DNA of 64,000 nt from Rhodospirillaceae bacterium (GCA_038146865.1 JAYQSL010000007.1:301203-365202), one strand, 5' to 3'; shown: positions 13,886 to 56,557, numbered from the stretch's first letter. The notes: generated from the letters alone by a model not told the origin. A program made the numbers and translations.

Positions 13886-13889
13886 AAAT

Positions 13890-35082: not shown

Positions 35083-35937
35083 TTAGCCGAAAGGTTTCAA
35101 TATTTCTCCAGCGACTTTACCCCTCTTTAGGAGTCGTCTTTGCTCTGGGGGAAAAGAGGTTCGAGCGTGAGCGGAACAACGATTGTCCCAAATTAAATAG
35201 TCGCCCAAGGACCATATGTGTTCGTAATCAACCCGTTCTATAAAATGAAAAAGTTCTTGCAAGAGATCGCTGGCATCAGATTTGTCCATGCCTTGAATTG
35301 CCGCACTCATTAATCTGTTGACATATAGGGCCGGGCGTTTTGTCTCCGGATGAATGAGAACCGCTGGCTGCCAACAATGAGGTATCCGGGCGAGGTCTGA
35401 TAAATCTGGTTCTTGTTTTACGGTATAGTCGTAGACTTGTAATACCCGCTTTCCGGCAATCTTCTTTTTCAAATTATATGGGAGAGCCTCCCAGGATAAA
35501 TAACAATTATTAAAAAGCGTGTGTCCACCAGTTTTTGGTAACTCAACCGAATAAAGCCAGGTAGCTTTATCAGGCGCTTGTGAAAACGAATTATCGTGGT
35601 GAAACCACATATCACTATCACCAAAAGACCCTATTTCTTCGTTAAATTCATTCCTGATATTGGATACCAGTTGAATATTGAGGTCCTCATCTCGCCGACG
35701 TCCCAAGGGCATATGGATTTTCCCAATAGAACCAAGCCAATCGGCACTTGTCTTAAGTTGTAGGTCATTGAGCTCCATATCACGAAAAATAAGAAGAATG
35801 TGTTCAGCGAAAGCAGATCTTAAGATCATGGCGTCTTTTTCAGAAATGCTCTCGTCCAGAGCAACACCCTGAACCTCAGCCCCAATAGTCTCACTAAGCG
35901 GCCTGATTTCGATCATATCGTTAACCCTATCTGTCAA
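35083..35937 (-). CDS. TauD/TfdA-family Fe(II)/2-oxoglutarate dioxygenase (paralogue 3)
   Basis: 284 aa. HxD in WFHHDNSF, plus GGHTLF and IWDNRCSAHARTSF. Confidence 0.85.
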   Translation of the reverse strand: MTDRVNDMIEIRPLSETIGAEVQGVALDESISEKDAMILRSAFAEHILLIFRDMELNDLQLKTSADWLGSIGKIHMPLGRRRDEDLNIQLVSNIRNEFNEEIGSFGDSDMWFHHDNSFSQAPDKATWLYSVELPKTGGHTLFNNCYLSWEALPYNLKKKIAGKRVLQVYDYTVKQEPDLSDLARIPHCWQPAVLIHPETKRPALYVNRLMSAAIQGMDKSDASDLLQELFHFIERVDYEHIWSLGDYLIWDNRCSAHARTSFPPEQRRLLKRGKVAGEILKPFG

Positions 35938-37161: not shown

Positions 37162-37938
37162 ATGGATAGAATTATAGAACTCTTAATTGCGGGCACACCC
37201 CTTGATATTCTCGGCTTCTCCGGTTTGTGTGGGGTTTCCTTTTTGGGCAGTTTTATCGCGGCTTCACTAGGCCTAGGCGGCGGTCTTCTAGTACTCGCGA
37301 CCATGACATTATTTCTACCGCCAGCGGTCCTTATACCGCTCCATGGCATCGTTCAGGTTGGGTCTAATGGCTTTCGTATATGGCTTATGAGAAGGGACGC
37401 GCTTTATACCGTCGCGCCAGCATTTATTGTTGGGACCCTTTTAGGAGCTTGGATTGGAGGAAAAACCGTATTCGCTCTGGAAACCTGGGTCTTGCAAATG
37501 ATCCTCGGCCTTTTTGTTCTGTATGCGACATGGGCGCCGAGCTTCACAAGTCGCAAACCGGGGCCAGTTAAATTTCTAAGTGTTGGGATAGCTGGCGGGT
37601 TTGCAACAATGTTTGTTGGCGGCACCGGGCCTCTCGTTGCGCCGTTCGTAAAGGCTGCATGCTCGGCTCGGCAACAGGTTGTCTCTACCCATGCACTGCT
37701 CATGACCTTTCAACATCTATTTAAAGTGATTGCCTTTGGTTTGCTAGGTTTCGGGTTTGGGCCCTACATACCGCTGCTTGTGGGCTTGATAGGATTTGGC
37801 ATGATTGGCACCTGGGTGGGAAGGAAGGTGCTGGATAAACTTCCAGAAAAAGTATTTAGGATCGGGCTCAATGTTATTCTTACGTTATTGGCCTGCAGGT
37901 TGCTTTATGCCGCCGTGTCGGCTCATTTTTCTGGCTAA
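37162..37938 (+). CDS. TauE/SafE (DUF81) family anion exporter
   Basis: 258 aa, about 8 TM helices, Gly-rich repeated halves typical of sulfite/sulfoacetate exporter-like proteins. Confidence 0.75.
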   Translation: MDRIIELLIAGTPLDILGFSGLCGVSFLGSFIAASLGLGGGLLVLATMTLFLPPAVLIPLHGIVQVGSNGFRIWLMRRDALYTVAPAFIVGTLLGAWIGGKTVFALETWVLQMILGLFVLYATWAPSFTSRKPGPVKFLSVGIAGGFATMFVGGTGPLVAPFVKAACSARQQVVSTHALLMTFQHLFKVIAFGLLGFGFGPYIPLLVGLIGFGMIGTWVGRKVLDKLPEKVFRIGLNVILTLLACRLLYAAVSAHFSG

Positions 37939-38597: not shown

Positions 38598-38762
38598 AAA
38601 AATTATCCAGGATTTATTCGAAAACCATGACCTCTAAGGCAAGACCATTGGCTGGTTCAACTGTTGTTATGGGTATTGCAAATTTATCTACCTTACATAT
38701 TTCGAAAAAAAGGAAGCAGGGCTTTCATTCCTTTTAGCTCTAAAATATTTCTGTTTGATGAC

Positions 38763-39320
38763 ATGAATGCTCTGTTCCATAGTACATCCGCAGATAAAAT
38801 TACTGCAAGCGGAGGCGTTCTATTGTCGAAACAAATTATCGCAAGTTTTCCTGAAAATCCGCATGATCATAGTCAATGTTTTGATGAAGCGATGGATGCG
38901 GCAGAAAATTTGTGTAAGAGGTTCGGTTTAAGACTGACGGCTCAACGGCGGCGGGTGCTCGAGTTATTGTGGACCAGTCATAAACCGCTGGGTGCTTATG
39001 AAATTCTGGATATGCTGAATAAGCAGGGCGCGGCTGCGGCGCCGCCGACGGTCTATCGCGCGCTAGATTTTTTGTTGGCGAATGGGCTGATCCACCGCAT
39101 CGAGTCATTAAATGCATTTGTTGGGTGCGCTGCGCCAGACCAAGAGCATGGAGGCCAATTTTTAATATGTAGCAGTTGCGGACTTACAGCGGAATTAGAC
39201 GATGATGACCTGACAAAAAAGATCCGCGAGAGGGCTTCTAAAATGGGTTTTGATGTAAAGAAACAAACTATCGAAGTGTCAGGACTTTGTCCCGCGTGTC
39301 GTATCCCAAATAATGAATAG
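38763..39320 (+). CDS. zur: Fur-family zinc uptake regulator
   Basis: The ORF track starts at 38664. ATG 38763 gives 185 aa. It has a His/Cys-rich N-terminus (PHDHSQC), a winged-helix block LTAQRRRVLELLW...PPTVYRALDFL, and CxxC pairs (CSSCG, CPAC). Confidence 0.75.
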   Translation: MNALFHSTSADKITASGGVLLSKQIIASFPENPHDHSQCFDEAMDAAENLCKRFGLRLTAQRRRVLELLWTSHKPLGAYEILDMLNKQGAAAAPPTVYRALDFLLANGLIHRIESLNAFVGCAAPDQEHGGQFLICSSCGLTAELDDDDLTKKIRERASKMGFDVKKQTIEVSGLCPACRIPNNE

Positions 39321-39439: not shown

Positions 39440-40429
39440 CTAACAGCTGCAGGTTTCTAAGTGAAAAACCTTTTGCGCAACGTTCCCAAGAATATTTTTC
39501 TTGTCATTACTGGTTAGCTCCGCGTTCTCAATGATTTCTCGAGGTCTTAAATCTCCAAAGGCGAAGGGATAATCGGAGCCCATCATTATTTTTTCTGATC
39601 CATACATTTTGCATATAAATTCGAGTGCTTTGCCATCAAGCACAACACTGTCGAAATAGCAGGTTTTTAGACTATCTTCTGGATTGCCGTATTCTGGGTG
39701 CTGCCGGTGGTTTAGCTGCATTCGACCCTGTAAGAACGGAAGGCCGCCTCCACCATGCGAAATTACAAATTTTATCCCGGAATATTTTTGCACGTGGCCA
39801 GCAAAAATTAATCGAGACATAGCAGTGGTCGTATCTAAGCCACGACCGATTGTGTTTATCAGTCCGTAATCCGATAATCGTGGGTCTTTGCATCCAAACA
39901 TTGGATGCAGAAAAACTGTTGCCTGAAGTTCCGAAGCCGTCTCCCAGAAGATGTCTAGATCGGGATCGTCAAGATTGCCACCGTGTCCATTAGGAAGTGT
40001 CCCTATCATCGTACCGTGAAAACCCGCTTCTATTGCTTCGCGCAGAACGATCGCCGCTATCGCTCCATTCTGCAGTGGGACGGAGCAAAGGGGAGCAAAG
40101 CGATGGGAAGTTTCACAAGCTCTCATAAGATGTTCATTTATAAATCGAGCCCACCTTAGACCCTCGTCCTCAGGCAGCTCGTAACCAAAGCTGTCAAGCC
40201 AACCCGCACAAACCATTGCATCGATCCTTTGCTCATCCATCCAGGACAGTCTGGACTCGCTTTGGATAAGCTTTGGCAGGATCGGGCGAGTCAAAGGACC
40301 CCCTGCAAACCCCAGTTTCCAGATCCCCGCCTCATGCAGACAATCAATGTTCGGAAAATTTGCGGATTTTGATTGTAGTTCCTCGAGCATGGCCAGAGGA
40401 AGATAGTGAGCGTGAGTATCCACAATCAT
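39440..40429 (-). CDS. amidohydrolase-2 (ACMSD/LigW-type) metal-dependent decarboxylase/hydrolase
   Basis: 329 aa. N-terminal metal ligands IVDTHAHYLP, an internal His (FLHP) and a late SDYPF block. It is the last gene of the Mo-hydroxylase operon, 10 nt after the crotonase stop. Confidence 0.8.
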   Translation of the reverse strand: MIVDTHAHYLPLAMLEELQSKSANFPNIDCLHEAGIWKLGFAGGPLTRPILPKLIQSESRLSWMDEQRIDAMVCAGWLDSFGYELPEDEGLRWARFINEHLMRACETSHRFAPLCSVPLQNGAIAAIVLREAIEAGFHGTMIGTLPNGHGGNLDDPDLDIFWETASELQATVFLHPMFGCKDPRLSDYGLINTIGRGLDTTTAMSRLIFAGHVQKYSGIKFVISHGGGGLPFLQGRMQLNHRQHPEYGNPEDSLKTCYFDSVVLDGKALEFICKMYGSEKIMMGSDYPFAFGDLRPREIIENAELTSNDKKNILGNVAQKVFHLETCSC

Positions 40430-40439
40430 GGGATCAAGA

Positions 40440-41165
40440 TCATTTTTTCATTGCGGCTGCCGTATTAACCATTGAATGGATGGCTCTCGCGTAATCCAGC
40501 GCCCCTTGATCGTCCATTCGAGGCGCTGAAGTAAGATATTCTTTTAATCCCAAAATAGCGGGACGCTTTCGACTGAGCAAAATATCACAAAATTCCTTAA
40601 CCTCGGCCTCAAGATCTTTGTCTTCAGCAACTGTTGAAATAATGCCATAGGCCATAGCCTGTTCGGCAGAAATAAATTTTGCGGTATAAGTCATCCATAA
40701 AATAGCATTCCTGTTCATACGATCGTAGATCGCTGACATCACCATCGTCGGCATAACGTTGTGATCCATTTCCGGAATATTAAACTGTGCAGACTTTGCT
40801 GCTATCGTGACATCACAGACTGCGGCAACTGCTGTACCGAACCCCATGCAGCGACCTTCGATCACAGCAACGACTGGGATTTTGCAATTTTTTATCGCGT
40901 TGTAGCAGTAAAAAATTGAATCATATTCATCGCGTCGCGTATACGCTTCTGGGTGCGGAGGTCCTGCATCAGGATTTCTTGCTCGCCCAGTACAAAAGTC
41001 AGGCCCACAGCTTCTGAGCAGGACCATGTCAGATGTTTCATGCGCTGAAGCAAGTTTGGCCGAGAACTCTGCCGCCATTGAGTCAGAACACGCATTATCG
41101 TCAGGTCGGTTGAAGGTCGCTTCAAAAATGCGTCCATTTTGGTTAAGAAGAAGGTGATTACTCAT
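40440..41165 (-). CDS. enoyl-CoA hydratase/isomerase (crotonase) superfamily protein, divergent
   Basis: The ORF track starts at TTG 41177. GGAG 6 nt before ATG 41165 (MSNHLLLNQNG) is preferred. Crotonase blocks: FNRPDD, PVVAVIEGRCMGFGTAVAAVCD, FNIPEM. The usual F(C/S)AGxDL block reads FCTGRARNPD. Confidence 0.75.
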   Translation of the reverse strand: MSNHLLLNQNGRIFEATFNRPDDNACSDSMAAEFSAKLASAHETSDMVLLRSCGPDFCTGRARNPDAGPPHPEAYTRRDEYDSIFYCYNAIKNCKIPVVAVIEGRCMGFGTAVAAVCDVTIAAKSAQFNIPEMDHNVMPTMVMSAIYDRMNRNAILWMTYTAKFISAEQAMAYGIISTVAEDKDLEAEVKEFCDILLSRKRPAILGLKEYLTSAPRMDDQGALDYARAIHSMVNTAAAMKK

Positions 41166-41190
41166 AAAAATCTCCAATTCCGTTGTATTT

Positions 41191-43572
41191 CTAGCTGTTC
41201 AACAATTCTTCAAGGTCTCGGACGCGCATTGGTAGAGTCGCGATTGATTTGCCGAGTGGTGCCAGTGCATCATTTACTGCGCTGGCAATAGCTGCGGGCG
41301 CACCGAGATATCCAGACTCTCCGGAACCCTTCTGACCGAATTCTGTTAGTGGTGAAGGAGTGTAATGTTTGATCATCTCGACAGTGGGAATTTCATGGGC
41401 AGAGGGCAACAGGTAATCCATAAAAGTTCCTGCTTGGAGTTGCCCACTCTCGTCATATTGAAATTTTTCATAAAGCGCAGCTCCGATACCATGGGCAATC
41501 CCTCCGAATGTCATCCCCCTTACGATATCGGGGTTAATAACAGTCCCGCAATCGTGCCCAATATAATAGTCATGGATTTGAACTTGGCCTGTTCCTGGGT
41601 CAATGGTGACTAACGGTATATGTGCTTCAAAAGCGTAGCAGGGGTACATTTGAACTGTCCCATCTTCTTTGGGCATCGCACCTCCGGTAGGAACTTCCCA
41701 TGTATGTTGGGCTTGCAGTCCTGGCTCTGAGCCAATGGGCATGTTGTGATACTGCCTGTGCGCGATATCAACTAACTGTTCCCATTTAAGGCAACGCTCG
41801 GTGTCTCCCTTAACGTAAACATCTCCGCCTTCATAAATCAATCGATCCTCGGGCAACTGAAAATTATGTGCAGCGATAGCAATTACTTGGTTCTTTATTT
41901 TCTTTGCGGCTCCGGCTGCCGCACCGCCCAACATAATTGCCATTCGGCTCCCGACAGGGCTATTTGATGGCAGCGCTGTGACAGAGTCTGAATGAATGGC
42001 TCTTATACTATCTGGGTCCCGCTCTAACACCTCAGCAATGGAAACCGCGAGAAGTGTCTCATGTCCCTGACCCGATGAAGAGGTGCCCATCATTGCACAA
42101 ATTCCACCCAGCATGTCTACTTTGATTAAGCATGACTCCATCCAGGTCGTAGTATTGTTCTTTGGGTTGAATAAAGGTTCGAAAGAAGAATTTCCCCCCG
42201 ATGGCTCGAGGCATGTAGATAAACCTAGGCCGGCTAATTTGCCACTTTCCCTAAACGCGTTGCGTTTGTCGATTAGGGCATCCCAATCTGCAGTCTTCAT
42301 AAGCTTATCAAGAACAGTGTGGTAATCCCCACTGTCATATTCCGAACCCGAGGGAATTCGCCAAGGAAATTCGTCTGATCTGATCAGATTACGACGACGA
42401 ATTTCTTCGCGAGGGATATTTAAAGCCGAAGCGATCCGGTCAACAACTGTTTCAATAGCAAAATTGGTTGGTGCTTGGCCAAAACCACGGACTGCTTCCT
42501 GACTTGTTTTGTTTGTAGAGACCGATCTGGCATGGTACTGGGCGCTCTTGATTCGGTAAGGTCCCACAATAGCGCTAACGGGTTTGCCAAGTTGGAGGGG
42601 CGCGCGGCCTGGGTAGCAGCCACAATCATCCGTGGCAGTGATTTTTAGGGACTCCATTATGCCCTGTTCGTCGTAGGCAACCTCCATGTCAAAGATCCGG
42701 TCAGGACCATGCATTTCACCACCCGCCATGTTCTCCAGCCTGTCCTCAATAAATCTAACCGGGCGCTGTAGCTTTTTTGTCAGGTAAGAAACAATCACCG
42801 TTTGTCTGATGCCTCTTTTAAGGCCGTAGGAACCTCCAACATCAACATCAAAATGGACATTAACTGACGTGACCGGCATTCGAAGAGCACGCGCAATTTG
42901 CTCAGGGTATTTGGGCATCTGGATCGATGCCCAAACATCCAACATCTCTCTACCCTCATCCCAGCTCGCTGTAACAGCAAACGTTTCGATCGGGACGGTC
43001 GAGGAACGGCTCCATTTTGCGCGCAAGGCAAGGGTATGTGCAGCCTTTGCAAAGTCCCCTTCGACATCCCCCCATGTCCAGGTTTTATCGAAAAATATAT
43101 TATTTCCGTTTTCTGGGTGAACGACAGGAGCAGTATTCTGAAGCGCCTCCTCGGGATCAATTACGAAATCGAGCATTTCATAGTCGATCGCCACAAGCTC
43201 AGCTGCGTCTTCCGCGATATGGCGGGTATCGGCAACAACCGCTGCAACCCATTCCCCCGCATATCGAGCGCGGCCATTTGCTAAAGGCAACCGTTTTACG
43301 TCGGGGAGGTCGAGGCCTGATAAAAGAGGATTAATATTGCTAGCTAGTTCTTCGCCAGTGAGAACGTAATGTACCCCTGGAAGTTCTAAAGCTAGAGAGC
43401 AATCAATAGAGTTAATTTTTGCACAAGTGAAAGGGGACGAAACCATAGCGACATGGAGCATGCCAGGGAATTTAAAGTCTGCCGCAAAACGACCTTTTCC
43501 CGTTACGAAACGTCGATCCTCTTTTACCCTTCGTTTTTTTGTTAGATATTTAAATTGCTGAGGAGTACTCAT
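41191..43572 (-). CDS. xanthine-dehydrogenase-family molybdopterin-binding large subunit
   Basis: 793 aa. Active-site loop QEAVRGFGQAPTNF and C-terminal catalytic Glu block QKGSGESGYLGAP. Neither the AYRCSFR nor the AYRGAGR CoxL signature is present. Confidence 0.9.
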   Translation of the reverse strand: MSTPQQFKYLTKKRRVKEDRRFVTGKGRFAADFKFPGMLHVAMVSSPFTCAKINSIDCSLALELPGVHYVLTGEELASNINPLLSGLDLPDVKRLPLANGRARYAGEWVAAVVADTRHIAEDAAELVAIDYEMLDFVIDPEEALQNTAPVVHPENGNNIFFDKTWTWGDVEGDFAKAAHTLALRAKWSRSSTVPIETFAVTASWDEGREMLDVWASIQMPKYPEQIARALRMPVTSVNVHFDVDVGGSYGLKRGIRQTVIVSYLTKKLQRPVRFIEDRLENMAGGEMHGPDRIFDMEVAYDEQGIMESLKITATDDCGCYPGRAPLQLGKPVSAIVGPYRIKSAQYHARSVSTNKTSQEAVRGFGQAPTNFAIETVVDRIASALNIPREEIRRRNLIRSDEFPWRIPSGSEYDSGDYHTVLDKLMKTADWDALIDKRNAFRESGKLAGLGLSTCLEPSGGNSSFEPLFNPKNNTTTWMESCLIKVDMLGGICAMMGTSSSGQGHETLLAVSIAEVLERDPDSIRAIHSDSVTALPSNSPVGSRMAIMLGGAAAGAAKKIKNQVIAIAAHNFQLPEDRLIYEGGDVYVKGDTERCLKWEQLVDIAHRQYHNMPIGSEPGLQAQHTWEVPTGGAMPKEDGTVQMYPCYAFEAHIPLVTIDPGTGQVQIHDYYIGHDCGTVINPDIVRGMTFGGIAHGIGAALYEKFQYDESGQLQAGTFMDYLLPSAHEIPTVEMIKHYTPSPLTEFGQKGSGESGYLGAPAAIASAVNDALAPLGKSIATLPMRVRDLEELLNS

Positions 43573-44054
43573 AGATTACTCCCTCGAGCCCTTTGAGCTG
43601 CTATTTTTACCGCCTCGACAATTTGTTGATAGCCGGTGCAACGACAGAGATTGCCGCCAATAGCTTCCCGAATTTCTTCCTCTGTGGGGTCCGGATTTTC
43701 CTCTAAAAGATGATGACATGCTATGAGCATACCTGGGGTACAATAGCCGCATTGCATGGCGTGATTTTCCCAAAATGCATCTTGGATAGGGGACAGCGAA
43801 CCGTCTTTACCCCCGAGCCCCTCTACCGTAACGAAATCGTGCCCATCCGCCATAACGGCATATATTAGGCAAGATCTTACCGGACGCCCATCCATGATAA
43901 CTGAGCATGCGCCGCAAACCCCATGCTCGCAGCCTACATGGGTGCCAGTGAGGTCAAGTTCATCACGCAGAAAGTCTACCAGTGTTAAACGCGCCTCGAC
44001 TTCTCTTTTATAGGATGTCCCATTCACAGTGATCTGTATCGTGTTTTTGCTCAT
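43569..44054 (-). CDS. (2Fe-2S)-binding small subunit of the molybdenum hydroxylase
   Basis: 161 aa. CEHGVCGAC...C (plant-type cluster) and QCGYCTPG...CRCTGY (second cluster). 4-nt overlaps on both sides. Confidence 0.9.
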   Translation of the reverse strand: MSKNTIQITVNGTSYKREVEARLTLVDFLRDELDLTGTHVGCEHGVCGACSVIMDGRPVRSCLIYAVMADGHDFVTVEGLGGKDGSLSPIQDAFWENHAMQCGYCTPGMLIACHHLLEENPDPTEEEIREAIGGNLCRCTGYQQIVEAVKIAAQRARGSNL

Positions 44055-44932
44055 GCAAATTCACCTTGTGCTCGGTCACGGGCATCTCGAATTGCCCGCG
44101 CCGCTAAAATAGTGCTCACACGGCGCCTATATTCGGCACTCGCATGCACATCTGATTGTGGTTCTAATAAAGCTGGGATCAAAGAGATCGCAGTGTCGAT
44201 TTCGCCGTCATCAACAACCTTCCCAGTGAGTGCTGTTTCGACCTCATTAAGACGCAGAGGACACGGGGTGGCACCTCCTACCGCTAAGTGGACGCGCTCA
44301 CACCTACCGCTACTATCAATGGCAATTTGGGCGGCTGCCGCGGCCAGGGCGTAATCACTGTCTCTGATGCTCGTTTCATGAAAACCAAAACCGATATGCT
44401 CATCCTCCCAAATTGGGAACTCGACTTCCGTAAGGCACTCCCCGACTTTTAAACTAGTCACCATGGCTGAGTCGAAGAACTGGCTCGCGGGAATGGACCG
44501 CGTTCCGTTTGTGCTTTTTGCAGTCATTTTGGCATCAAGCAGCTGCGCAATTAGACAGATCTCGGCGGAGGGATCAGCTGCAACTAAACTGCCGCCAATG
44601 GTGCCCCGATTGCGGGTTTGGGTATGACCAACGTGTCCAAGGGCTTCTGACAAGATCGGTAAATTTTCACGGATCTCAATCGAGCCTAGGACATCTGCCT
44701 GCCTTGTTCCGGCTTTTACCCGTGCCACTTTTTCTGCAATTTCTATTCCTCGGAGCTCTTCGATGTCATTGATATCGACTAATGTCTGAGGTCGAGCCAT
44801 GCGCATAGCCATAAGAGGGATTAACGTTTGGCCCCCAGCAATAATCTGTGCCTCACCATCTCCCTGATTAAGAGCTAAACAAACCTCATCAATAGACTTG
44901 GCTCGGATATAATCAAACGAAGCTGCTTTCAT
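44051..44932 (-). CDS. FAD-binding medium subunit of the molybdenum hydroxylase
   Basis: 293 aa. IAGGQTLIP FAD motif and the CO-dehydrogenase-flavoprotein C-terminal domain pattern. It is the first gene of the operon. Confidence 0.9.
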   Translation of the reverse strand: MKAASFDYIRAKSIDEVCLALNQGDGEAQIIAGGQTLIPLMAMRMARPQTLVDINDIEELRGIEIAEKVARVKAGTRQADVLGSIEIRENLPILSEALGHVGHTQTRNRGTIGGSLVAADPSAEICLIAQLLDAKMTAKSTNGTRSIPASQFFDSAMVTSLKVGECLTEVEFPIWEDEHIGFGFHETSIRDSDYALAAAAAQIAIDSSGRCERVHLAVGGATPCPLRLNEVETALTGKVVDDGEIDTAISLIPALLEPQSDVHASAEYRRRVSTILAARAIRDARDRAQGEFA

Positions 44933-45043
44933 TACCTTCTTTGCGAGTGGATTAGGATTAACATGGTATTACACGTCCGGACCCTATGAAGGGGGGTGGG
45001 GGTTGTCAATACAGACCTCTGTGACATAACTCCACACCGATAA

Positions 45044-46720
45044 ATGCAACATGAGATAAATATGATGAGTGAATCCAAACGTGCTTATCCTGACCTTCAC
45101 GAGCACATTGAAGCCCTGGAAAAGGCCGGTCTATTGGTAACTGTGGATGACCCAGTGGATAAGGACTCAGAGATGCATACTCTCGTGAGATGGCAATTTG
45201 TTGGGGGCTTGAAGGAGTCTGAGCGCAAAGCATTTTTATTCCGAAATATACAAAATGCGAAGGGAAGGTCTTACGAACTCCCGATTGTCGTGGGGGCCCT
45301 TGCCGCTAATCAAGATATATACAGCGTTGGCATGGGTGTGCCGGTGGAGGAGATAGGCAGGAAATGGGAGCAAGCAATTGCTAATCCGATACCGCCATCC
45401 GAAGTCTCGGAGGCGCCTTGTCACGAGGTAATCATCGAAGGGGAAGATTTAATTGGCGAAGGAAACGGGTTGGACTCCTTGCCGATCCCTGTTTCAACCC
45501 CAGGTTTTGACAACGCTCCAACTCTGACCTCAACAAACGTCGTGACCAAGGATCCCGAGACTGGTATTCAAAATATGGGCACTTATCGCGCAGGTTTGAA
45601 AGCTGCCGATCGTCTTGTAGTCCGAATGGCAACAAGAGTGGGAGGTGCTGGTGGTTACCAGCACTACAAAAAACATCGGGAGAGGGGTGATAAGGAAATG
45701 CCTGTCGCGATTGTACTGGGGTGTCCCCCGTGTGTTGCTTTTATGGGGCCTCAGAAATTACCACTTGATATGGACGAAATGGCGATCGCCGGTGGTTTGG
45801 CCGGTGCCTCCGTTAATATTGTGAAGGCCAGAACCGTCGATTTGATGGTTCCAGCCGAGGCAGAACTTGTTATCGAAGGCCTGGTTGACACTGAGATGGT
45901 GGAGCCAGAGGGCCCATTTGGTGAGAGCCATGGCCACGTAGCTCTTGAGGAGTTCAATATGCCAATGCGCATAACGGCGATCACTAGGCGTAAAAATGCG
46001 ATTTTGACGTCTTACATCAGTCAAGCGGCTCCCTCAGAGTCGAGCGTGATAAAAAGAGTGGCATATGAACCTCTATTTCTCACGCATCTCAGAGATGCAC
46101 TGGGGGTCAAAGGCGTCAAAAAAGTCTCTCTCCACGAGCCTCTTACCGGACTTTTGCGCGTAACGATTATAACCGTTGAACGAGATACCCCTAAAACTGA
46201 AATTTGGCGTGCCCTCTATGGAGCCGCTTTTTTTAAGGGTGACTGCAGTAAAATTTGCATTGCAGTAAATGAGGATATTGATCCAGATAATGCGGACGCC
46301 ATGCTTTGGGCGATGGCCTATCGCATGAATCCTACTGAGGATGTGCAAACGTTGGCACATCGGGGCCAGGGTCATGGGCCCAAGCGCGAGCATGCGGGAG
46401 AGGAAGATTCCACACTCCTAATGGATGCGACGATGAAAAGCCCAATGCCGCCGGTAGCTTTGCCTACACAAGAATATATGGAAAAGGGTCTGGCTCTCTG
46501 GAATAAATTGGGCCTCCCGACTGTTAAGCCGATGCCGCCATGGTTTGGCTATTCATTGGGTGATTGGAATGATGTTTGGCATCAAGGGGCAAAACGTGCG
46601 GCGGAGGGAGATTACTTGGAAAATGGTCAAAGGACTTTGCAGCGCCAACAAAAAGGGCTTGTGCCCGAAACCTCGGTGCGTGACACCGAAGACGGATGGT
46701 CTGATTTAGATCATTGGTAG
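45044..46720 (+). CDS. UbiD-family (prenyl-FMN dependent) decarboxylase
   Basis: 558 aa. YPDLHEHIEALEKAGLL aligns with the UbiD N-terminus, with NMGTYR and EPEGPFGESHGH blocks. The start may be ATG 45062 or 45065 rather than 45044, since none has a clear Shine-Dalgarno sequence. Confidence 0.9.
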   Translation: MQHEINMMSESKRAYPDLHEHIEALEKAGLLVTVDDPVDKDSEMHTLVRWQFVGGLKESERKAFLFRNIQNAKGRSYELPIVVGALAANQDIYSVGMGVPVEEIGRKWEQAIANPIPPSEVSEAPCHEVIIEGEDLIGEGNGLDSLPIPVSTPGFDNAPTLTSTNVVTKDPETGIQNMGTYRAGLKAADRLVVRMATRVGGAGGYQHYKKHRERGDKEMPVAIVLGCPPCVAFMGPQKLPLDMDEMAIAGGLAGASVNIVKARTVDLMVPAEAELVIEGLVDTEMVEPEGPFGESHGHVALEEFNMPMRITAITRRKNAILTSYISQAAPSESSVIKRVAYEPLFLTHLRDALGVKGVKKVSLHEPLTGLLRVTIITVERDTPKTEIWRALYGAAFFKGDCSKICIAVNEDIDPDNADAMLWAMAYRMNPTEDVQTLAHRGQGHGPKREHAGEEDSTLLMDATMKSPMPPVALPTQEYMEKGLALWNKLGLPTVKPMPPWFGYSLGDWNDVWHQGAKRAAEGDYLENGQRTLQRQQKGLVPETSVRDTEDGWSDLDHW

Positions 46721-46904: not shown

Positions 46905-47942
46905 ATGAAAGTTTATAAGGCAACCCTTGGTTTGGTTGCGGCTGCGGCCACACTCGGTGTGACTCAGGGCGCACTCCAAGCAAAGGATTTAACAATGGTT
47001 ACGGCGCTCCAAAGGACCAATGTTTTGGCCCGAAGCGCGATCGAAGTTTTTATTCCGGCAATGAACAAAGCAGGAAAAGGTCAACTTAAAATTAATTATG
47101 TTGGCGGCCAGGAAGTTGTGCCACCAAGAAAAGCGGCAGCAGCTCTAAAGCGTGGACAGTTCAATATTCTTTCTGCACCAACCGCCTACTACATCGGAAC
47201 GGTTCCCGAAGGCTATGCATTGTTGGCTGCAAACCAAGGGCCGAAGATTCTTAGGAAAAATGGTGCTTGGGAACTTCTCCAAAAGATTTACATGGAAAAA
47301 GCAGGAGCCCACTTGCTTGCTTGGGGAGAAAATATGACCTCCTATTACATGTATCTGACCAAGCAGCCCCCATTGGACGCAAATGGAGTTCCAAATCTGA
47401 AGGGCTTCAAGATGCGTGCGACTGGTACCTACAGGCCTCTGTTCAGAGCGCTTGGTGCGACAACCGTCAATATTAAGTCATCGGAAATTTTCACAGCGGT
47501 CCAGAGAGGAACTGTCGATGGTTTCGGCTTCACAGACGTCTCGGCAGTGGCGCTGGGCTTCCACAACATTGTGAAGTATCGGGTATTCCCAAACTTCTAT
47601 CAGACAAACCAGGTTATTACTGTTAACCCGGCAGTCTGGAATAGCCTGACACAAAAACAGAAAGATATAATGAACAAAGTTGCGATCGAGTATGAAACAA
47701 CCTCGGTCAAGTTCATCGAAAAAGAGCGCTTGGCGGAAGAAAAGATAATCGCCAAATCTCCAATGAAGACAATAAAGCTTGGTAAAGGAGCAGCAAAATA
47801 TCTCTCCATTGCTCATGGCGAAATCTGGAAGGAACTCAAAAAACGTTCCAAGTATTCCGATCAGCTTGCTAAGCTTATGTACATTGAAGGTAAAGCCAAT
47901 CGTCAGGTTGATACAGGCCGAACTTTGGACGAAAAGCGATAA
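46905..47942 (+). CDS. TRAP transporter substrate-binding protein (DctP family), system 1
   Basis: 345 aa. Signal peptide MKVYKATLGLVAAAATLGVTQGALQA. FKMRATGTYRP and FTAVQRGTVDG blocks. Followed by the Q and M subunits. Confidence 0.8.
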   Translation: MKVYKATLGLVAAAATLGVTQGALQAKDLTMVTALQRTNVLARSAIEVFIPAMNKAGKGQLKINYVGGQEVVPPRKAAAALKRGQFNILSAPTAYYIGTVPEGYALLAANQGPKILRKNGAWELLQKIYMEKAGAHLLAWGENMTSYYMYLTKQPPLDANGVPNLKGFKMRATGTYRPLFRALGATTVNIKSSEIFTAVQRGTVDGFGFTDVSAVALGFHNIVKYRVFPNFYQTNQVITVNPAVWNSLTQKQKDIMNKVAIEYETTSVKFIEKERLAEEKIIAKSPMKTIKLGKGAAKYLSIAHGEIWKELKKRSKYSDQLAKLMYIEGKANRQVDTGRTLDEKR

Positions 47943-47963
47943 ACAAAACACCTGTTTTGGAAG

Positions 47964-47997
47964 AACGGCGCCGATAACCTCGGCGCCGTTTTTTTTA
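47964..47997 (+). terminator. intrinsic terminator/attenuator after the TRAP-1 binding-protein gene
   Basis: AACGGCGCCGA (47964-47974) pairs perfectly with TCGGCGCCGTT (47980-47990) around loop TAACC. A T-run continues to 47997. Confidence 0.65.
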
Positions 47998-48029
47998 CAT
48001 CTTTTTCTTCCAAATGTGGATTTGATTGT

Positions 48030-48058
48030 TTGACAATAAATTCAACACTAGCCAGTAT
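48030..48058 (+). promoter_or_regulatory. possible sigma-70-type promoter for the TRAP-1 membrane subunits
   Basis: TTGACA (48030-48035), a 17-nt spacer, then CAGTAT (48053-48058), located between the terminator and dctQ-like gene. This is pattern match only. Confidence 0.25.
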
Positions 48059-48114
48059 GCGCCCAAACAACCCTCATCTGGGTCCAATAAAAAGCGGGGA
48101 GGAGATCTAGCAGT

Positions 48115-48630
48115 ATGAAATCATTCGACTCGGCACTAGGGAAACTTTCAACATGGATGATGTGGGTGTCGGCTGCGATCATCCCCTGCATGTTCACCGG
48201 AATTACGGTGGATGTGTCAATCAGGCTATCTGGAAATAATCCGCCCCTATTTACCTCAACGCTAGTTGAATATGCCCTTTTGTATATGACAATGTTGGCC
48301 GCACCTTGGTTAGTTAGGGAGCGAGGTCATGTGGTTATTGAGGCTCTGGTAACAGCTCTGCCTGCTTCTGTGAGACAACCTCTTGCCAAATGCGTTTACC
48401 TCTTGTGTGCTTGTATGGCCTTTCTTTCCGCCTATCTTTGTTGGGGTATTTTTGTTGATTACTGGGTTGGCGGTGAGCTTGATGTGAGGGGTGTCGACAT
48501 GCCCTATTGGTCACAATTTTTGCCGTTGCCGGTATGTTTCGCATTGGTGGGCTTGGAGTTCTGCATGTATCTTGCGGGTTTGCGATCCTACTACTCTTAT
48601 GACTTGGGCGAAGTAAAGGACGGGGTCTAA
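48115..48630 (+). CDS. TRAP transporter small permease (DctQ family), system 1
   Basis: 171 aa with 4 TM helices. GGAGGAG Shine-Dalgarno sequence upstream. A 2-nt gap separates it from the large permease gene. Confidence 0.8.
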   Translation: MKSFDSALGKLSTWMMWVSAAIIPCMFTGITVDVSIRLSGNNPPLFTSTLVEYALLYMTMLAAPWLVRERGHVVIEALVTALPASVRQPLAKCVYLLCACMAFLSAYLCWGIFVDYWVGGELDVRGVDMPYWSQFLPLPVCFALVGLEFCMYLAGLRSYYSYDLGEVKDGV

Positions 48631-48632
48631 CG

Positions 48633-49949
48633 ATGGGTATGGAGTGGTATGAGGCGGGAGGCCTTCTCCTTGGTTGCATTATCACCGGTATGGCTCTCGG
48701 CATACCCGTGGCCTTCACATTTATGGCAACAAATATTGTCGGGATCTTCGTTTTCTCCGGAGGCTGGCCAGTTCTGCCTCAAATCGCTGACAATGCGACC
48801 AACTTAATAACAACCTTTACCCTATCACCTATCCCTATGTTCATTCTCATGGGGTCAATGTTCTTTCATACAGGCCTCGCTATTAAAGTCTTTGATGCAT
48901 TGGATACATTGCTTGGGAAGATCCCAGGGCGCTTATGTTTTCTAACCGTCATCGGGGGGTCGCTGTTCTCGACGCTAACGGGCTCAACTATGGCCAATAC
49001 CGCGATGCTGGGTTCGCTGCTGGTCCCGGAGATGACGAGGCGGGGTTACAGCAAAAAAATGTCTATGGGTCCGATCCTTGGCACCGGTGGATTAGCCATG
49101 ATTATTCCGCCATCATCACTGGGTGTGCTGCTGGCGAGTATCGCGAATGTGGATGTTGGACGTCTTTTGATCGCAGGATTGTTGCCAGGTTTTCTTTTAG
49201 CCACCCTTTACGCGGGAATGATTTCTTTCCAACTTTGGCGTAATCCGGAGTCAGCTCCGTCTTACGATGTAGAGCCAACCACGTGGGGACAAAAGTTCTA
49301 TCAAATTGGCGTCAATATTTTGCCGATGGGTTTCGTAGTATTCCTTGTGATCGGATTTATTGTTCTTGGATGGGCAACGCCCTCTGAATCAGCCTCGTTC
49401 GGTGTTGTCGGCGTGTTCATCCTGGCTGCTGTCCGCCGCATGCTAAGCTTTGAGAATATTGCGAAGTCTCTTGAGGGCACCATCAGGGTTGCCGCAATGG
49501 TGTTCTTTATTCTTATGAATTCGACGGTTTTCAGCCAATTGTTATCAATATCAGGTGCTGGCAGAGGCCTAGTGGCTTGGGCGACAAGCTTTGAAGTGGC
49601 GCCTCTGGTCATATTGACGGCAATGTTCCTTGTATTGATTCTGCTTGGAATGTTTATGGATCAAGTGTCTATGATGCTGATCACAGTGCCAATTTTTTAT
49701 CCGTTAGCCGCGGCATTGGGCTACGATTTAATTTGGTTTTCACTGATTGTCCTGATGGCATTAGAGATGAGCGCGACAACACCGCCTTTCGGTTTGCTGT
49801 TATTTATCATGTTGGGAATGGTCAGAGGAACAACGTTGTTTGAAGTGGCAGCGGCAGCCATTCCCTTCCTGTTCTGTGACCTGATCCTGATCATTATTCT
49901 TGTCATTGCGCCCGGTTTGGCTCTTTATTTGCCTAGTCTTATGGGGTGA
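48633..49949 (+). CDS. TRAP transporter large permease (DctM family), system 1
   Basis: 438 aa, polytopic. GIPVAFTF, GSLFSTLTGSTMANTAMLG and TTPPFGLLLF blocks are typical of DctM. Confidence 0.9.
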   Translation: MGMEWYEAGGLLLGCIITGMALGIPVAFTFMATNIVGIFVFSGGWPVLPQIADNATNLITTFTLSPIPMFILMGSMFFHTGLAIKVFDALDTLLGKIPGRLCFLTVIGGSLFSTLTGSTMANTAMLGSLLVPEMTRRGYSKKMSMGPILGTGGLAMIIPPSSLGVLLASIANVDVGRLLIAGLLPGFLLATLYAGMISFQLWRNPESAPSYDVEPTTWGQKFYQIGVNILPMGFVVFLVIGFIVLGWATPSESASFGVVGVFILAAVRRMLSFENIAKSLEGTIRVAAMVFFILMNSTVFSQLLSISGAGRGLVAWATSFEVAPLVILTAMFLVLILLGMFMDQVSMMLITVPIFYPLAAALGYDLIWFSLIVLMALEMSATTPPFGLLLFIMLGMVRGTTLFEVAAAAIPFLFCDLILIIILVIAPGLALYLPSLMG

Positions 49950-49970
49950 CCAAGTTTTAATAAAATTATA

Positions 49971-49999
49971 AGCCCGGCCTTGAGCCGGGCTTTTCGTTT
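49971..49999 (+). terminator. intrinsic terminator after TRAP-1 operon
   Basis: AGCCCGGC (49971-49978) pairs with GCCGGGCT (49984-49991) around loop CTTGA, followed by TTTCGTTTC. Confidence 0.6.
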
Positions 50000-50049: not shown

Positions 50050-50970
50050 ATGTCAGAGTATAAATTCAATAACATCAAGATTGAAAAGGGACAGGGTATT
50101 GGTTGGTTGATTTTAAATCGGCCTGAGAAACGAAACGCGATGAGCCCTGAGCTGCATATGGAGTGTGCGGATGCCTTAGATCTCTTGGCCGATGATGATG
50201 ACGTCAAGGTGCTCGTATTAACAGGTTCTGGAAAGGCTTTCAGCGCTGGTCAGGACCTTGCGCTTTATTTTAGAGCAAACCAAGATAATCCTAAGACCCG
50301 CGCCAAGGCTCGCGCCGCATCAAGTTCTTGGCGTTGGCATAAGCTTGTGAATTTTCCCAAGCCTACGATTGCAGCGGTGAATGGGTTTTGTTTTGGCGGT
50401 GCATTTACGCAGCTTTGCGCCTGTGATTTTGCGATTTCAGCAAATAACGCAACTTTTGGTTTGTCCGAGGTAAATTGGGGAATTATCCCTGGCGGCATTG
50501 TCAGCTGGAATGTTGCTGATGTTCTCTCCTATCGAGACGCCCTTTATTATGCGGTTACAGGTGATCCTTTTGACGGAAAGACCGCTGAGAAAATACGCCT
50601 AGTCAATTATTCTGTCCCAGCGAACAAGCTTCGCTCTGAAACAATAAAGTTAGCCAAAAAGTTAATGACTAAAAGCCCGAATGCTATGCGTTACACAAAG
50701 GAAGCAATTCGGAGTGTACGTCGGATGAATGAGCCTGAGGCTGCAGATTACCTCAACGCGAAAAGCATCGCTTGTAAAGCAACTGACCCTATTCCCGGTC
50801 GTGATGAGGGTATGAGACAGTTCTTAGACGAAAAAAGCTATCGCCCAGGGTTGGGTCAATTAGATCTTAAGAAGGCGGCTGCGAGAGGTAAGGGCGCGTC
50901 TGGTCAAAAGACATCCGCCGGTAAAAAAGCAGCGGCAAAAAAAGCAAAAAAGACCGCTCGAAAGCGCTAA
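50050..50970 (+). CDS. hydroxycinnamoyl-CoA hydratase/lyase (HCHL)-like crotonase with Lys/Ala-rich C-terminal tail
   Basis: 306 aa. It is collinear with my recollection of Pseudomonas fluorescens HCHL across its length. Shared blocks: ILNRPEKRNAMSP, AGQDL.LYFR, KPTIAAVNGFCFGG, ATFGLSEVNWGIIPG, GMRQFLDEKSYRPGL. AGGGAG Shine-Dalgarno sequence upstream. Confidence 0.75.
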   Translation: MSEYKFNNIKIEKGQGIGWLILNRPEKRNAMSPELHMECADALDLLADDDDVKVLVLTGSGKAFSAGQDLALYFRANQDNPKTRAKARAASSSWRWHKLVNFPKPTIAAVNGFCFGGAFTQLCACDFAISANNATFGLSEVNWGIIPGGIVSWNVADVLSYRDALYYAVTGDPFDGKTAEKIRLVNYSVPANKLRSETIKLAKKLMTKSPNAMRYTKEAIRSVRRMNEPEAADYLNAKSIACKATDPIPGRDEGMRQFLDEKSYRPGLGQLDLKKAAARGKGASGQKTSAGKKAAAKKAKKTARKR

Positions 50971-51037: not shown

Positions 51038-51319
51038 ATGGCGATAGAACTTTATCATAATGGTATGTCAACTTGCTCTCAAAAGGTGAGGCTCACCTTG
51101 GCTGAAAAAGGTCAAGATTTTTACTCCCATCACTTTAATTTGCGCGCCCGTGATCAGCATAAACCAGAGTATCTTGAGTTAAACCCAAATGGGGTTGTCC
51201 CCACCATTATTCATAATGGAAAAATTATTTATGAGTCAGCTGTCATCGATGAATATCTTGATGATGTGTTTCCCGATCCGGCTCTCAGATCTAAAGATCC
51301 ATTTGAACGCTCATTATGA
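51038..51319 (+). CDS. glutathione S-transferase, N-terminal thioredoxin-like domain only (split gene, part 1)
   Basis: IELYHNGMSTCSQKVRLTLAEKG...NPNGVVPTIIHNGKIIYESAVIDEYLDDVFP is a complete GST N-domain. It stops at TGA 51317-51319, at the domain boundary. Confidence 0.7.
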   Translation: MAIELYHNGMSTCSQKVRLTLAEKGQDFYSHHFNLRARDQHKPEYLELNPNGVVPTIIHNGKIIYESAVIDEYLDDVFPDPALRSKDPFERSL

Positions 51320-51837
51320 GGAGATGGGTGAAGCAGCTAGATGAAGGGCTTCATGCTGCAAGCGCAACCATTAGCGCCTGCATTGCTTTCAGATATCAAT
51401 TTATGGAAGGCAAAACTTCTGAAGAACTTCAAAAGACCCTCGATGGGTACGTAAATCCGGAAAAAAGACGGAGGATGACCGAGAACGTGCTGGAAGGCGT
51501 AGAGTCGACCTTTTTTAAACCAGCAATCGCTCGCATCGTGAAGATGCTGGACGATATGGAAGCCGATTTACACCAATATCCTTGGATTGCGGGGGCGTCA
51601 TACTCCCTGGCCGATATTGCTTTAACGCCCTATGTCACCAGAGTTGTGCATTTAAAACAAGATTGGCTTTTTGACACTCGCCCAAAAGTTGCGGCGTGGT
51701 TTGAGAAAATATGCGCTCGTCCCAACTACCAGATAGCTATGCGCCAATGGTTTATCGATGATTTCATTACATTGATGGCTTCGAAGGGAGAGGAAAATAA
51801 ACCGGGGGTCAAGAAAGTCATTCAGGAAACTGTATGA
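51316..51837 (+). CDS. glutathione S-transferase, C-terminal helical domain only (split gene, part 2)
   Basis: 173 aa. MRRWVKQLDEGLH... continues the GST fold (WIAGASYSLADIALTPYV is the C-domain core). Its ATG overlaps the part-1 stop (ATGA 51316-51319). Confidence 0.7.
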   Translation: MRRWVKQLDEGLHAASATISACIAFRYQFMEGKTSEELQKTLDGYVNPEKRRRMTENVLEGVESTFFKPAIARIVKMLDDMEADLHQYPWIAGASYSLADIALTPYVTRVVHLKQDWLFDTRPKVAAWFEKICARPNYQIAMRQWFIDDFITLMASKGEENKPGVKKVIQETV

Positions 51838-53165: not shown

Positions 53166-53186
53166 TGCTGAATTGCTAATTTGATC

Positions 53187-53214
53187 GGGGGCGCCTAGGC
53201 GCCCCCTTTTATTT
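53187..53214 (+). terminator. intrinsic terminator/attenuator after the ABC binding-protein gene
   Basis: GGGGGCGCC (53187-53195) pairs with GGCGCCCCC (53198-53206), followed by TTTTATTT. It lies between the binding-protein gene and the first permease gene. Confidence 0.65.
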
Positions 53215-53230
53215 ATCGAGTCCGGTTTCA

Positions 53231-54154: not shown

Positions 54155-54157
54155 TTA

Positions 54158-55856: not shown

Positions 55857-56557
55857 TGCTCGAAGTTAGACACCTAGAAACTTCATACGGCTCGAGCCAA
55901 GTTTTATATGGTATAGAACTTCAAATTGGCGCAGGACAAGTTGTGACCCTTATGGGCAGAAATGGTATGGGCAAGACCACCACAATAAAGTCTATTTGTG
56001 GAATGGTGCCGCCGAAAGCGGGATCTATTATCCTTGAGGGGCAAGATATTGTCGGTCTCCCATCCCATAAAATAGCGAGAGCCGGTATCGGACTTGTCCC
56101 TGAAGGTCGACAAATTTTTCCAAACCTGACCGTAAAAGAAAATCTTGTTGCAACAGCGCGAAATTTTGCGGGTTCTCCTAATCCATGGACTATTGATCGT
56201 GTTTTGGACTTTTTTCCCTCCGTGGCTGCTCGTATAAATGGGATGGGGAATGAACTGTCCGGTGGTGAACAGCAAATGTTAGCGATCGGTCGTGCCCTTA
56301 TGACGAACCCAAAGCTTTTGATCCTTGATGAGGCAACAGAAGGGCTTGCGCCCCAAATTCGCGCCGATATTTGGCAATCTCTTGCTGAATTGAAATCTGA
56401 AGGTCAGGCGATACTAGTTATTGATAAAAATTTAGCGGCGTTAAACAGGATTGCTGATAAGCATTTTATCATTGAGAAAGGTGTTAGCGTATGGTCGGGC
56501 ACACCCGAAGCACTAAATGCTGAGCCGAAAATTAAAGAACGTTACCTCGGAGTCTAA
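55856..56557 (+). CDS. ABC transporter ATP-binding protein (LivF family)
   Basis: 233 aa. Walker A GRNGMGKTT, signature LSGGEQQMLAIGRAL, Walker B LILDEATEG. TGATG overlap with the upstream gene. Confidence 0.9.
   Translation: MLEVRHLETSYGSSQVLYGIELQIGAGQVVTLMGRNGMGKTTTIKSICGMVPPKAGSIILEGQDIVGLPSHKIARAGIGLVPEGRQIFPNLTVKENLVATARNFAGSPNPWTIDRVLDFFPSVAARINGMGNELSGGEQQMLAIGRALMTNPKLLILDEATEGLAPQIRADIWQSLAELKSEGQAILVIDKNLAALNRIADKHFIIEKGVSVWSGTPEALNAEPKIKERYLGV

Follow-up and report, generated by a model that had tools for sequence, protein, structure and literature searches.

A conserved, uncharacterized gene cluster combining a molybdenum hydroxylase, an ACMSD-type amidohydrolase, a crotonase-fold protein and a UbiD decarboxylase in a Rhodospirillaceae bacterium

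Genes at the locus

The present analysis concerns a gene cluster on a 64-kb stretch of DNA from a Rhodospirillaceae bacterium (GCA_038146865.1, JAYQSL010000007.1:301203-365202). In the following, this whole stretch is referred to as the window, and positions are counted from its first letter. On the minus strand, five tightly packed genes code for the FAD, 2Fe-2S and molybdenum cofactor (Moco) subunits of a molybdenum (Mo) hydroxylase, for a divergent crotonase-fold protein and for an amidohydrolase of the ACMSD type. On the opposite strand follow a UbiD-family decarboxylase and a TRAP importer. This cluster is a real, widely conserved and uncharacterized catabolic module, which is made of known enzyme families and matches no characterized pathway. 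The physical linkage of its genes is far beyond chance, because the arrangement recurs in dozens of species. A literature search on this gene combination, on new UbiD substrates, on quinolinate genes and on marine contexts found no characterization of the clade.

The cluster had been noticed in a preliminary description, and its five-gene operon with short overlaps and gaps was reproduced by the open reading frame (ORF) table (Table 1). The 2Fe-2S gene overlaps both of its neighbors by 4 nt, the FAD gene at 44051-44054 and the Moco gene at 43569-43572. In the case of the crotonase, the ORF opens at TTG 41177 (245 aa) and the start at ATG 41165 gives the 241 aa found in relatives; with this start the gap to the Moco gene is 25 nt, and the gap from the crotonase to the amidohydrolase is 10 nt. 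The UbiD ORF opens at 45044, and a database protein of 552 aa with 100% identity places the start at ATG 45062. The divergent spacer between the FAD gene and UbiD is then 129 bp, within the 110-130 bp estimated before, and the genes of the TRAP importer follow at 46905-49949, as described. A strong hairpin lies 3' of the DctP gene (47959-47995), and the TRAP unit ends at a strong bidirectional terminator (49970-49992). The family assignments held in Pfam. Judged from the sequence, the cluster parts are CATALYTICALLY intact and the catalytic residues of their enzyme families are kept.

A Pfam survey of the window classified its other large ORFs as housekeeping or transport genes. There was no aromatic ring-cleavage dioxygenase among them, three TauD-type dioxygenases being present, and the only transcription factor was a Fur-family gene. 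Near the cluster, the same survey found no Rieske or flavin monooxygenase and no cupin or extradiol ring-cleavage dioxygenase. By tblastn with reference proteins of the Hmf and lumazine pathways, no UbiX, HmfD-type CoA ligase, GTPase or deaminase was detected in the 64 kb. The absence of a ring-cleavage oxygenase, of an adjacent regulator, of an acyl-CoA ligase and of a local UbiX, all stated in the preliminary description, is thus borne out.

Table 1. Coordinates of the cluster genes, the spacer block and the TRAP genes in the window
Feature	Position	Strand	Size	Basis
FAD-binding (medium, CoxM-type) subunit	44051-44932	-	293 aa	Pfam FAD_binding_5 + CO_deh_flav_C
2Fe-2S (small) subunit	43569-44054	-	161 aa	Pfam Fer2_2 + Fer2
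Moco large subunit	41191-43572	-	793 aa	Pfam Ald_Xan_dh_C + MoCoBD_1 + MoCoBD_2
Divergent crotonase-fold protein	40440-41165	-	241 aa	Pfam ECH_1
ACMSD-type amidohydrolase-2	39440-40429	-	329 aa	Pfam Amidohydro_2
Candidate promoter/operator block in divergent spacer	44985-45009	strand-less		Spacer alignment, six marine relatives
UbiD-family (prFMN-dependent) decarboxylase	45062-46720	+	552 aa	Pfam UbiD_N/UbiD/UbiD_C
TRAP solute-binding protein (DctP family)	46905-47942	+		Pfam DctP
TRAP small permease DctQ	48115-48630	+		Pfam DctQ
TRAP large permease DctM	48633-49949	+		Pfam DctM; TIGR00786 above cutoff

Conservation of the module

Relatives of the UbiD were found in at least 592 species genomes, of which 80 loci were fetched (the UbiD-seeded set). 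Relatives of the Mo enzyme were found in at least 536 metagenome stretches, and 80 such loci were examined (the Mo-seeded set); seeding with the Mo large subunit is unbiased as to partner genes. In the UbiD-seeded set, a Moco orthologue (at least 55% identity) was present in 24 loci, all 24 of which also carry the amidohydrolase and/or the crotonase. Among 24 species loci that have a UbiD at least 67% identical and are flanked by 8 kb or more on either side (well-flanked loci), 15 have the orthologous Moco gene. Co-directional genes were seen in 15 of the 24 loci with an orthologous Moco subunit, the commonest layout being FAD-FeS-Moco-amidohydrolase-UbiD. A Mo subunit lies nearby in 29 of 42 well-flanked UbiD loci, against a few percent expected by chance on a rough estimate. 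The preliminary description would have given up the link had the two divergent units never been conserved together; they are co-conserved.

In the Mo-seeded set, orthologues of the FAD subunit (39-67% identity) adjoin the Moco gene in 72 loci, and the 2Fe-2S subunit is present in 75. In 42 of the 80 loci Moco is followed by the amidohydrolase and in 21 by the crotonase; 8 of these 21 have an alpha/beta-hydrolase between Moco and crotonase. Both genes occur together only in the marine clade. Within 10 kb of the Mo enzyme, a UbiD was found in 21 of the 80 loci and in 10 of the 27 well-flanked ones. Altogether, the module has its hub in the Mo enzyme; an ACMSD-type or crotonase-type enzyme almost always follows it, and UbiD, though frequent, is optional. 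The role of UbiD as a pathway partner, assumed in the preliminary description, therefore stands as regards co-conservation, but it is not an obligate one, being found in about a third of the well-flanked loci with an orthologous Mo enzyme.

The genomes obtained by seeding with the crotonase (Piscinibacter koreensis, Polynucleobacter sp. QLW-P1DATA-2 and one marine alphaproteobacterium) have the Mo enzyme and the crotonase, with no UbiD within the recovered flanks. In these, a LysR gene faces FAD-FeS-Moco genes (60-61% identical to those of the window) and the crotonase gene, and an alpha/beta-hydrolase and CoxG-TctC are optional. Within the marine clade, three combinations were observed: both genes (window, L101-L105), the amidohydrolase only (L106) and the crotonase only (L001). 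In the case of L001, whose UbiD and Moco subunit are 83% and 85% identical to those of the window, the amidohydrolase is a frame-broken remnant at 4524-5370 on the minus strand, made of four fragments at 45-51% identity, and its cluster neighbors are intact and 77-93% identical. This remnant suggests that the amidohydrolase gene is dispensable where the crotonase is present.

The molybdenum hydroxylase

The Moco subunit aligns end to end with its best PDB matches, QorL, CoxL and KdhL. In an alignment with QorL and CoxL, its loop reads AVRGFGQ, compared to the copper-binding AYRCSFR of CO dehydrogenases, and the catalytic Glu (KGSGESG) and the Gln of SIQMP are kept. The enzyme thus has the composition expected in the xanthine dehydrogenase (XDH)/CoxL family, i.e. 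an FAD subunit, a subunit with two 2Fe-2S clusters and a Moco subunit with the C-terminal catalytic Glu, and it is without the CSFR copper loop. Because the copper loop is replaced and both catalytic residues are kept, the enzyme is, by its motifs, an XDH/Qor-type hydroxylase and not a CO dehydrogenase. The top NCBIfam matches of the Moco subunit are CO dehydrogenase models, far below their cutoffs.

The amidohydrolase and the crotonase-fold protein

The best PDB match of the amidohydrolase is ACMSD (2e-30), at about 25% identity and thus short of true orthology. The metal site H6, H8, H175 and D286 is invariant in 15 of 15 orthologues, and so are R48 and R236, which match the arginines R51/R239* that hold the substrate carboxylates in ACMSD. 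The pattern of the ACMSD-related decarboxylase subgroup (HxH...H...D plus two Arg) is therefore complete. An AlphaFold model (predicted local distance difference test, pLDDT, of 83.8) was compared to known structures with Foldseek; ACMSD came first (template modeling score, TM, of 0.83), followed by IDCase (isoorotate) and dihydroxybenzoate decarboxylases, and no lactonase appeared in the top 50 matches. Because metal ligands and both arginines are invariant and the fold is nearest to these three kinds of decarboxylases, the protein is probably a metal-dependent non-oxidative decarboxylase more than a hydrolase. The kynurenine or 2-nitrobenzoate pathway context of ACMSD is not found at the window cluster.

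In the crotonase-fold protein, the sequence GFGTAVA stands where hydratases have GGGxELA, so that the first hydratase Glu is replaced, and the Glu of the IPE motif is kept. Canonical enoyl-CoA hydratases (ECH) have two catalytic Glu (GGGxE and PE); the fold itself is that of a crotonase. No NCBIfam model came near its cutoff. The family is tight (65-78% identity). The AlphaFold2 model (pLDDT 85.7) has a generic ECH fold resembling CoA-dependent hydratases, and a fold search with it did not separate CoA-dependent from CoA-independent relatives.

The UbiD decarboxylase

All three Pfam UbiD domains score above their cutoffs, which makes the protein a member of the family. In a 12-sequence alignment (A1, 55-100% identity), N177, R182, H207, E245, E289 and E294 are invariant; we take these, going by Fdc1 numbering, to be the Fdc1-type Mn/K and prenylated FMN (prFMN) ligands and the E-R-E triad. 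Because it remains below the cutoff of the TIGR00148 subfamily (208.7 vs 244.85), the protein is, on this score, a divergent member belonging to a distinct clade of about 545 aa. The best PDB matches, 6h6x and 6h6v, reach 124 bits only and are presumably HmfF. The clade is very tight: the top 120 database matches listed, all from alpha- and betaproteobacterial metagenome-assembled genomes, share 72-100% identity, and its 72-85% identity across proteobacterial classes is unusually high. A UbiX gene adjoins UbiD in 11 related loci, which indicates that UbiX need not be local in the window.

The clade has a C-terminal extension of about 90 aa (residues ~466-552, window 46460-46720). It is highly conserved, e.g. 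PPWFGYSLGDW, and matches no solved UbiD structure.

Some UbiD matches belong to other systems. Plasmid matches at 28% identity were set aside as O2-independent ubiquinone synthesis, with UbiX, U32 peptidases and an SCP2 protein as neighbors. A hutC-UbiD-UbiX-racemase set on a Paracoccus plasmid is a different, also uncharacterized cluster: it is located at 10218-16989 of L095 (Paracoccus denitrificans PD1222 plasmid 1), codes for hutC, UbiD (443 aa), UbiX and an Asp/Glu racemase, and also carries an FAD oxidoreductase, a 2Fe-2S protein, an FAD/NAD oxidoreductase and TIGR02444. Brucella and Sinorhizobium plasmids gave UbiD matches of similar extent and identity to that of L095. At the 55% tier, UbiDs are accompanied by another kind of Mo enzyme set, seen in L010 (Neorhizobium petrolearium plasmid, 6320-17471) and consisting of a Moco subunit, an ABC binding protein, CoxG, FeS and FAD subunits, a second Moco subunit, GntR and UbiX, so that the association of UbiD and Mo enzymes is wider than the orthologue group of this analysis. 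Among cultured carriers, Paraburkholderia caledonica NBRC 102488 and Sinorhizobium have UbiDs in a tier of 55-57% identity. Next to UbiX/UbiD genes of otherwise unrelated clusters, a DUF2390/TIGR02444 protein is found repeatedly (L010 17506-18003, L095 16423-16989, L036 10912-11463, and five further loci); it may be a prFMN- or UbiD-associated accessory protein.

Transport and regulation

The DctP protein of the window has 4mnc and 4mni as its nearest PDB entries (4e-33, 118 bits), which are too distant for a transfer of ligand specificity. DctP orthologues were found only in the marine clade, in both the UbiD- and the Mo-seeded loci. In other lineages, the importers are TctC, an SDF sodium:dicarboxylate symporter or an NMT1-type ABC system, and TctC recurs in 31 of the 80 Mo-seeded loci. 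TRAP import, as put forward in the preliminary description, hence applies to the window and the marine clade but not to the module in general. Beyond the core enzymes, almost every recurrent neighbor is a transporter, for the most part of a di- or tricarboxylate type; no oxygenase or further catabolic enzyme recurs in the neighborhoods beyond those named.

No regulator is encoded next to the window cluster; relatives with the Mo enzyme and the crotonase (variant B) have a divergent LysR gene. In an alignment of six marine relatives, the 129-bp spacer has diverged save for one block, TATGRAG-N7-8-GGGGTTGTCAA. In the window this block reads TATGAAG-N8-GGGGTTGTCAA, with a -35-like TTGTCA facing UbiD, and we infer that it may serve as a shared promoter and operator. 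A scan for the sigma-70 consensus had fewer matches than it had in shuffled sequence, with the divergent spacer free of them, and no riboswitch or other Rfam element was found near the cluster.

Proposed function

The reading that we favor, tentatively and at somewhat less than an even chance, is an oxygenase-free hydroxylation, followed by decarboxylation, of an imported heteroaromatic dicarboxylate. Firstly, an acidic heteroaromatic substrate, most likely a dicarboxylate, would be taken up, in the window by the TRAP system. Secondly, the Mo enzyme would add a water-derived hydroxyl next to the ring heteroatom, creating an oxo/enamine pattern that would enable removal of a neighboring carboxyl. 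The ACMSD-type metalloenzyme would then remove the carboxyl activated by the new oxo/hydroxy group, a slot that the crotonase-fold protein appears able to fill in other lineages. A second decarboxylation, peripheral to this route, would fall to UbiD, acting either on the product or on a precursor with more carboxyl groups. An acidic substrate, probably with two carboxylates, is suggested because of the two invariant arginines of the amidohydrolase, the transporter families and the presence of two decarboxylase-type enzymes. Pyridine-2,3-dicarboxylate (quinolinate) and other pyridine or furan dicarboxylates are candidates only. What we infer from these observations is the order in which the steps occur, that the substrate is a dicarboxylate, and that amidohydrolase and crotonase are equivalent. 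The preliminary description had proposed a route of decarboxylation, hydroxylation and hydrolysis; this order is not established, and the amidohydrolase, which alternates with the crotonase after the Mo subunit, is more likely a decarboxylase.

The proposed logic has parallels in pyridine catabolism. Two oxygenases belong to the picolinate (Pic) route, the monooxygenase PicB and the ring-cleaving 2,5-dihydroxypyridine dioxygenase PicD. As outlined in two preprints, its Mo hydroxylation of a pyridine carboxylate by PicA is followed by non-oxidative decarboxylation by PicC (bioRxiv 10.1101/530550, 10.1101/457895). In Alcaligenes UK21, quinolinate is likewise first hydroxylated to 6-hydroxyquinolinate and then decarboxylated to 6-hydroxypicolinate (PMC6644310). 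Outside pyridine catabolism, the succession of LuDH, DHLI and XCDC in the lumazine pathway (PMC12391406) is a further precedent. Mo hydroxylation and subsequent non-oxidative decarboxylation are the same succession as proposed for the window cluster. In its described gene content, the Pic system differs in that PicB and PicD are absent from the window and UbiD is absent from Pic, in line with the preliminary description, which had judged that the Pic template does not fit either. The dipicolinate (DPA, dip) pathway was rejected as a template, since deletion of the Moco-biosynthesis genes leaves DPA degradation intact and its first step is a monooxygenase.

Several points weigh against this reading. 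If both carboxyls were removed, the product would still be a heterocycle, and the further enzymes needed are absent from the cluster. To our knowledge, a CoA-free crotonase decarboxylase is without precedent, and the presumed equivalence of crotonase and amidohydrolase is drawn from gene position only. The water-activating His of ACMSD (H225), invariant among closer relatives of the amidohydrolase, is Ile or Met in 7 of 15 orthologues of a wider set that includes more distant ones, because of which the chemistry may differ from that of ACMSD. About two-thirds of the loci have no UbiD near the Mo enzyme. Lastly, the closest characterized relatives by sequence are the Hmf proteins, which would favor a different order of steps, as discussed next.

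Comparison with the Hmf and lumazine systems

For the comparison with Hmf, a plasmid search with UbiD provided a proxy, the Cupriavidus oxalaticus T2 plasmid NZ_CP032520.1 (L096), which carries a canonical hmf cluster: LysR, UbiD (501 aa), UbiX, TctC, Moco (1030 aa), FAD, FeS, AMP-ligase and enoyl-CoA hydratase. Both clusters combine UbiD as a peripheral funnel, a three-subunit XDH-family Mo hydroxylase, a crotonase-fold protein and a carboxylate-binding transporter protein, and Hmf holds the nearest characterized relatives of the window UbiD and Mo subunits. Identities to the proxies are 33% for Moco (416 bits), 36% for FAD (HmfB), 52% for FeS and 30% over 350 aa for UbiD. They are lowest for the crotonase, which matches the HmfE proxy with 24% over 159 aa (E 8e-10), no closer than it matches generic ECHs. 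The large subunit has 793 aa in the window and 1030 aa in Hmf, the gene order is FAD-FeS-Moco instead of Moco-FAD-FeS, and the ACMSD-type amidohydrolase is found in the window and not in Hmf. The window UbiD is thus not an HmfF-type orthologue with an adjacent HmfG (UbiX), its Mo subunits are not orthologues of the furoyl-CoA dehydrogenase HmfABC, and the furoyl-CoA synthetase HmfD gave no tblastn match in the window. This agrees with the preliminary description, in which the Hmf template had been judged not to fit.

These likenesses lead to the main alternative, namely a CoA-free analogue of Hmf. Here, UbiD would first trim a 2,5-dicarboxylated five-membered heteroaromatic (FDCA- or pyrrole-like) to the mono-acid, the Mo enzyme would hydroxylate C5, and the lactone or lactam formed by tautomerization would be opened hydrolytically, by the amidohydrolase or by the alpha/beta-hydrolase with the crotonase, to give a 2-oxoglutarate-type product. 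Such a route would be self-contained and would explain why no oxygenase or downstream enzyme recurs. It would also be in line with Hmf proteins being the nearest characterized relatives of three of the parts, with the optional and peripheral UbiD, as for hmfFG, and with the place of the crotonase after the Mo genes, as for hmfE; the alpha/beta-hydrolase that accompanies the crotonase in variant B would find a role as well. However, the dissimilar size and order of the Mo subunits and the distant crotonase speak against it, and so does the missing CoA ligase, as an ANL-type ligase lies in the flanks of only 7 of 167 related loci and never at a fixed position. The supposed ring opener has mostly decarboxylases, and among its top 50 matches no lactonase, as nearest relatives in sequence and fold. 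Going by established chemistry, Mo hydroxylation of a free, electron-rich furoate should moreover be less favorable. On balance, we consider this CoA-free route unlikely.

The lumazine/pterin cluster was not considered in the preliminary description and has the same three core families. In Cupriavidus sp. LA-1, the pathway proceeds from LuDH, a three-subunit Mo dehydrogenase, to DHLI alpha/beta, an amidohydrolase-2 isomerase, and to XCDC, a UbiD (PMC12391406). Cluster I also has UbiX, a GTPase and a deaminase, and the GTPase (LA1_0143-type) always accompanies DHLI-beta (PMC12391406). As a proxy we used S. meliloti pSymB CP140948.1 (L097), which agrees with what was published on cluster I of Rhizobiales. 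Its two amidohydrolase genes are neighbors, one product starting MIIDTHLHPT (His6/His8) and the other MIIDISCYPT without both His; after them come UbiD (460 aa), UbiX, a nucleobase permease, the GTPase, Moco/FeS/FAD, GntR and a deaminase-like amidohydrolase.

If the window cluster were a member or close variant of this pathway, its Mo dehydrogenase and a ring-contracting amidohydrolase-2 isomerase would act in turn, and UbiD would then decarboxylate a heterocycle carboxylate to give a purine-like product. No oxygenase is needed in either system, and the commonest order of the cluster genes (Mo, amidohydrolase, UbiD) mirrors the order of the lumazine reactions. The direct comparison fails: identities are 28% for Moco, 28% for FAD (LuDH-M), 49% for FeS and 25% for UbiD, and the window amidohydrolase, with its metal Asp at 286 compared to Asp235 in the DHLI type, has no blastp match to either DHLI subunit proxy. 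In addition, the window has a single amidohydrolase instead of the alpha/beta pair, is without the GTPase, UbiX, deaminase and nucleobase permease, and has transporters of carboxylate type; its UbiD is not of the XCDC type nor its Mo enzyme of the LuDH type. Membership in the lumazine pathway is thus, going by these protein comparisons, largely refuted, and we regard it as highly improbable.

An equally improbable case is that the genes are unrelated neighbors, with the Mo enzyme as a CO/aldehyde-type dehydrogenase and UbiD serving quinone or other biosynthesis: the weak matches to CO dehydrogenase models and the many Mo-seeded loci without a nearby UbiD would fit this, but the copper loop is absent, the UbiD is only 25-30% identical to ubiquinone-type UbiDs, which sit with UbiX and UbiTUV elsewhere, and both the co-directional operons in many species across classes and the frequency of Mo subunits near UbiD argue against it.

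Because of the low identities to both proxies and the lack of UbiX, GTPase, CoA ligase and deaminase in the window, the cluster is, as far as its proteins can be compared, a third, separate instance of a 'Mo hydroxylase + UbiD' design beside Hmf and lumazine.

Possible significance

Returning to hydroxylation and subsequent decarboxylation of a heteroaromatic dicarboxylate, a wider picture would be that of a hitherto unrecognized, oxygen-independent module by which marine, freshwater and soil Proteobacteria use an abundant natural compound of this kind, with a UbiD clade acting on a new substrate class and a CoA-independent crotonase-fold enzyme non-homologously replacing the ACMSD-type one. 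We regard this wider picture as somewhat doubtful. Substrates have been assigned to few UbiD enzymes (PMC8988006). With the substrate identified, genes that are common yet unannotated in marine (SAR116, Rhodospirillaceae-type), soil or freshwater bacteria would gain a function. The cluster would join Hmf and lumazine as a third example of its design, and biocatalysis could obtain new reversible (de)carboxylases from it. Non-homologous replacement could be tested on the apparent exchange between amidohydrolase and crotonase.

Neighboring genes

Beyond the TRAP terminator, the window contains, as a separate transcription unit, a gene for a p-hydroxycinnamoyl-CoA hydratase/lyase (50050-50970, plus strand; NCBIfam 349.6 vs a cutoff of 276 bits), which had been missed in the preliminary description. 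As the terminator lies between, and as a 79% orthologue was found in one related locus only (L015), it was rejected as a member of the pathway. It appears as an orphan, with no HmfD-type acyl-CoA ligase in the window (tblastn, HmfD proxy).

Next to it, a glutathione S-transferase gene (51038-51837, plus strand) is broken over two frames at ~51316; the homologue in L001 is an intact ORF of 266 aa. Either a frameshift, which would make it a pseudogene, or an error in sequencing accounts for the split. A second TRAP system at 56624-59661, with its DctP gene divergent from DctQ/DctM, adjoins a five-gene Liv/Urt-type ABC transporter (51966-56557).

On the other side of the cluster, the Fur-family ORF (38664-39320, plus strand) has 218 aa from a TTG, compared to 166 aa in L001, and its true start is probably internal. 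In L001, the Fur-family gene is followed by ZnuC/ZnuB-like genes, which are absent from the window. Further upstream, genes for the three TauD/TfdA-family dioxygenases and for one TauE/SafE exporter lie dispersed (27674-28561, 32829-33890, 35083-35937 and 37162-37938); they may belong to sulfonate or other 2-oxoglutarate-dependent metabolism.

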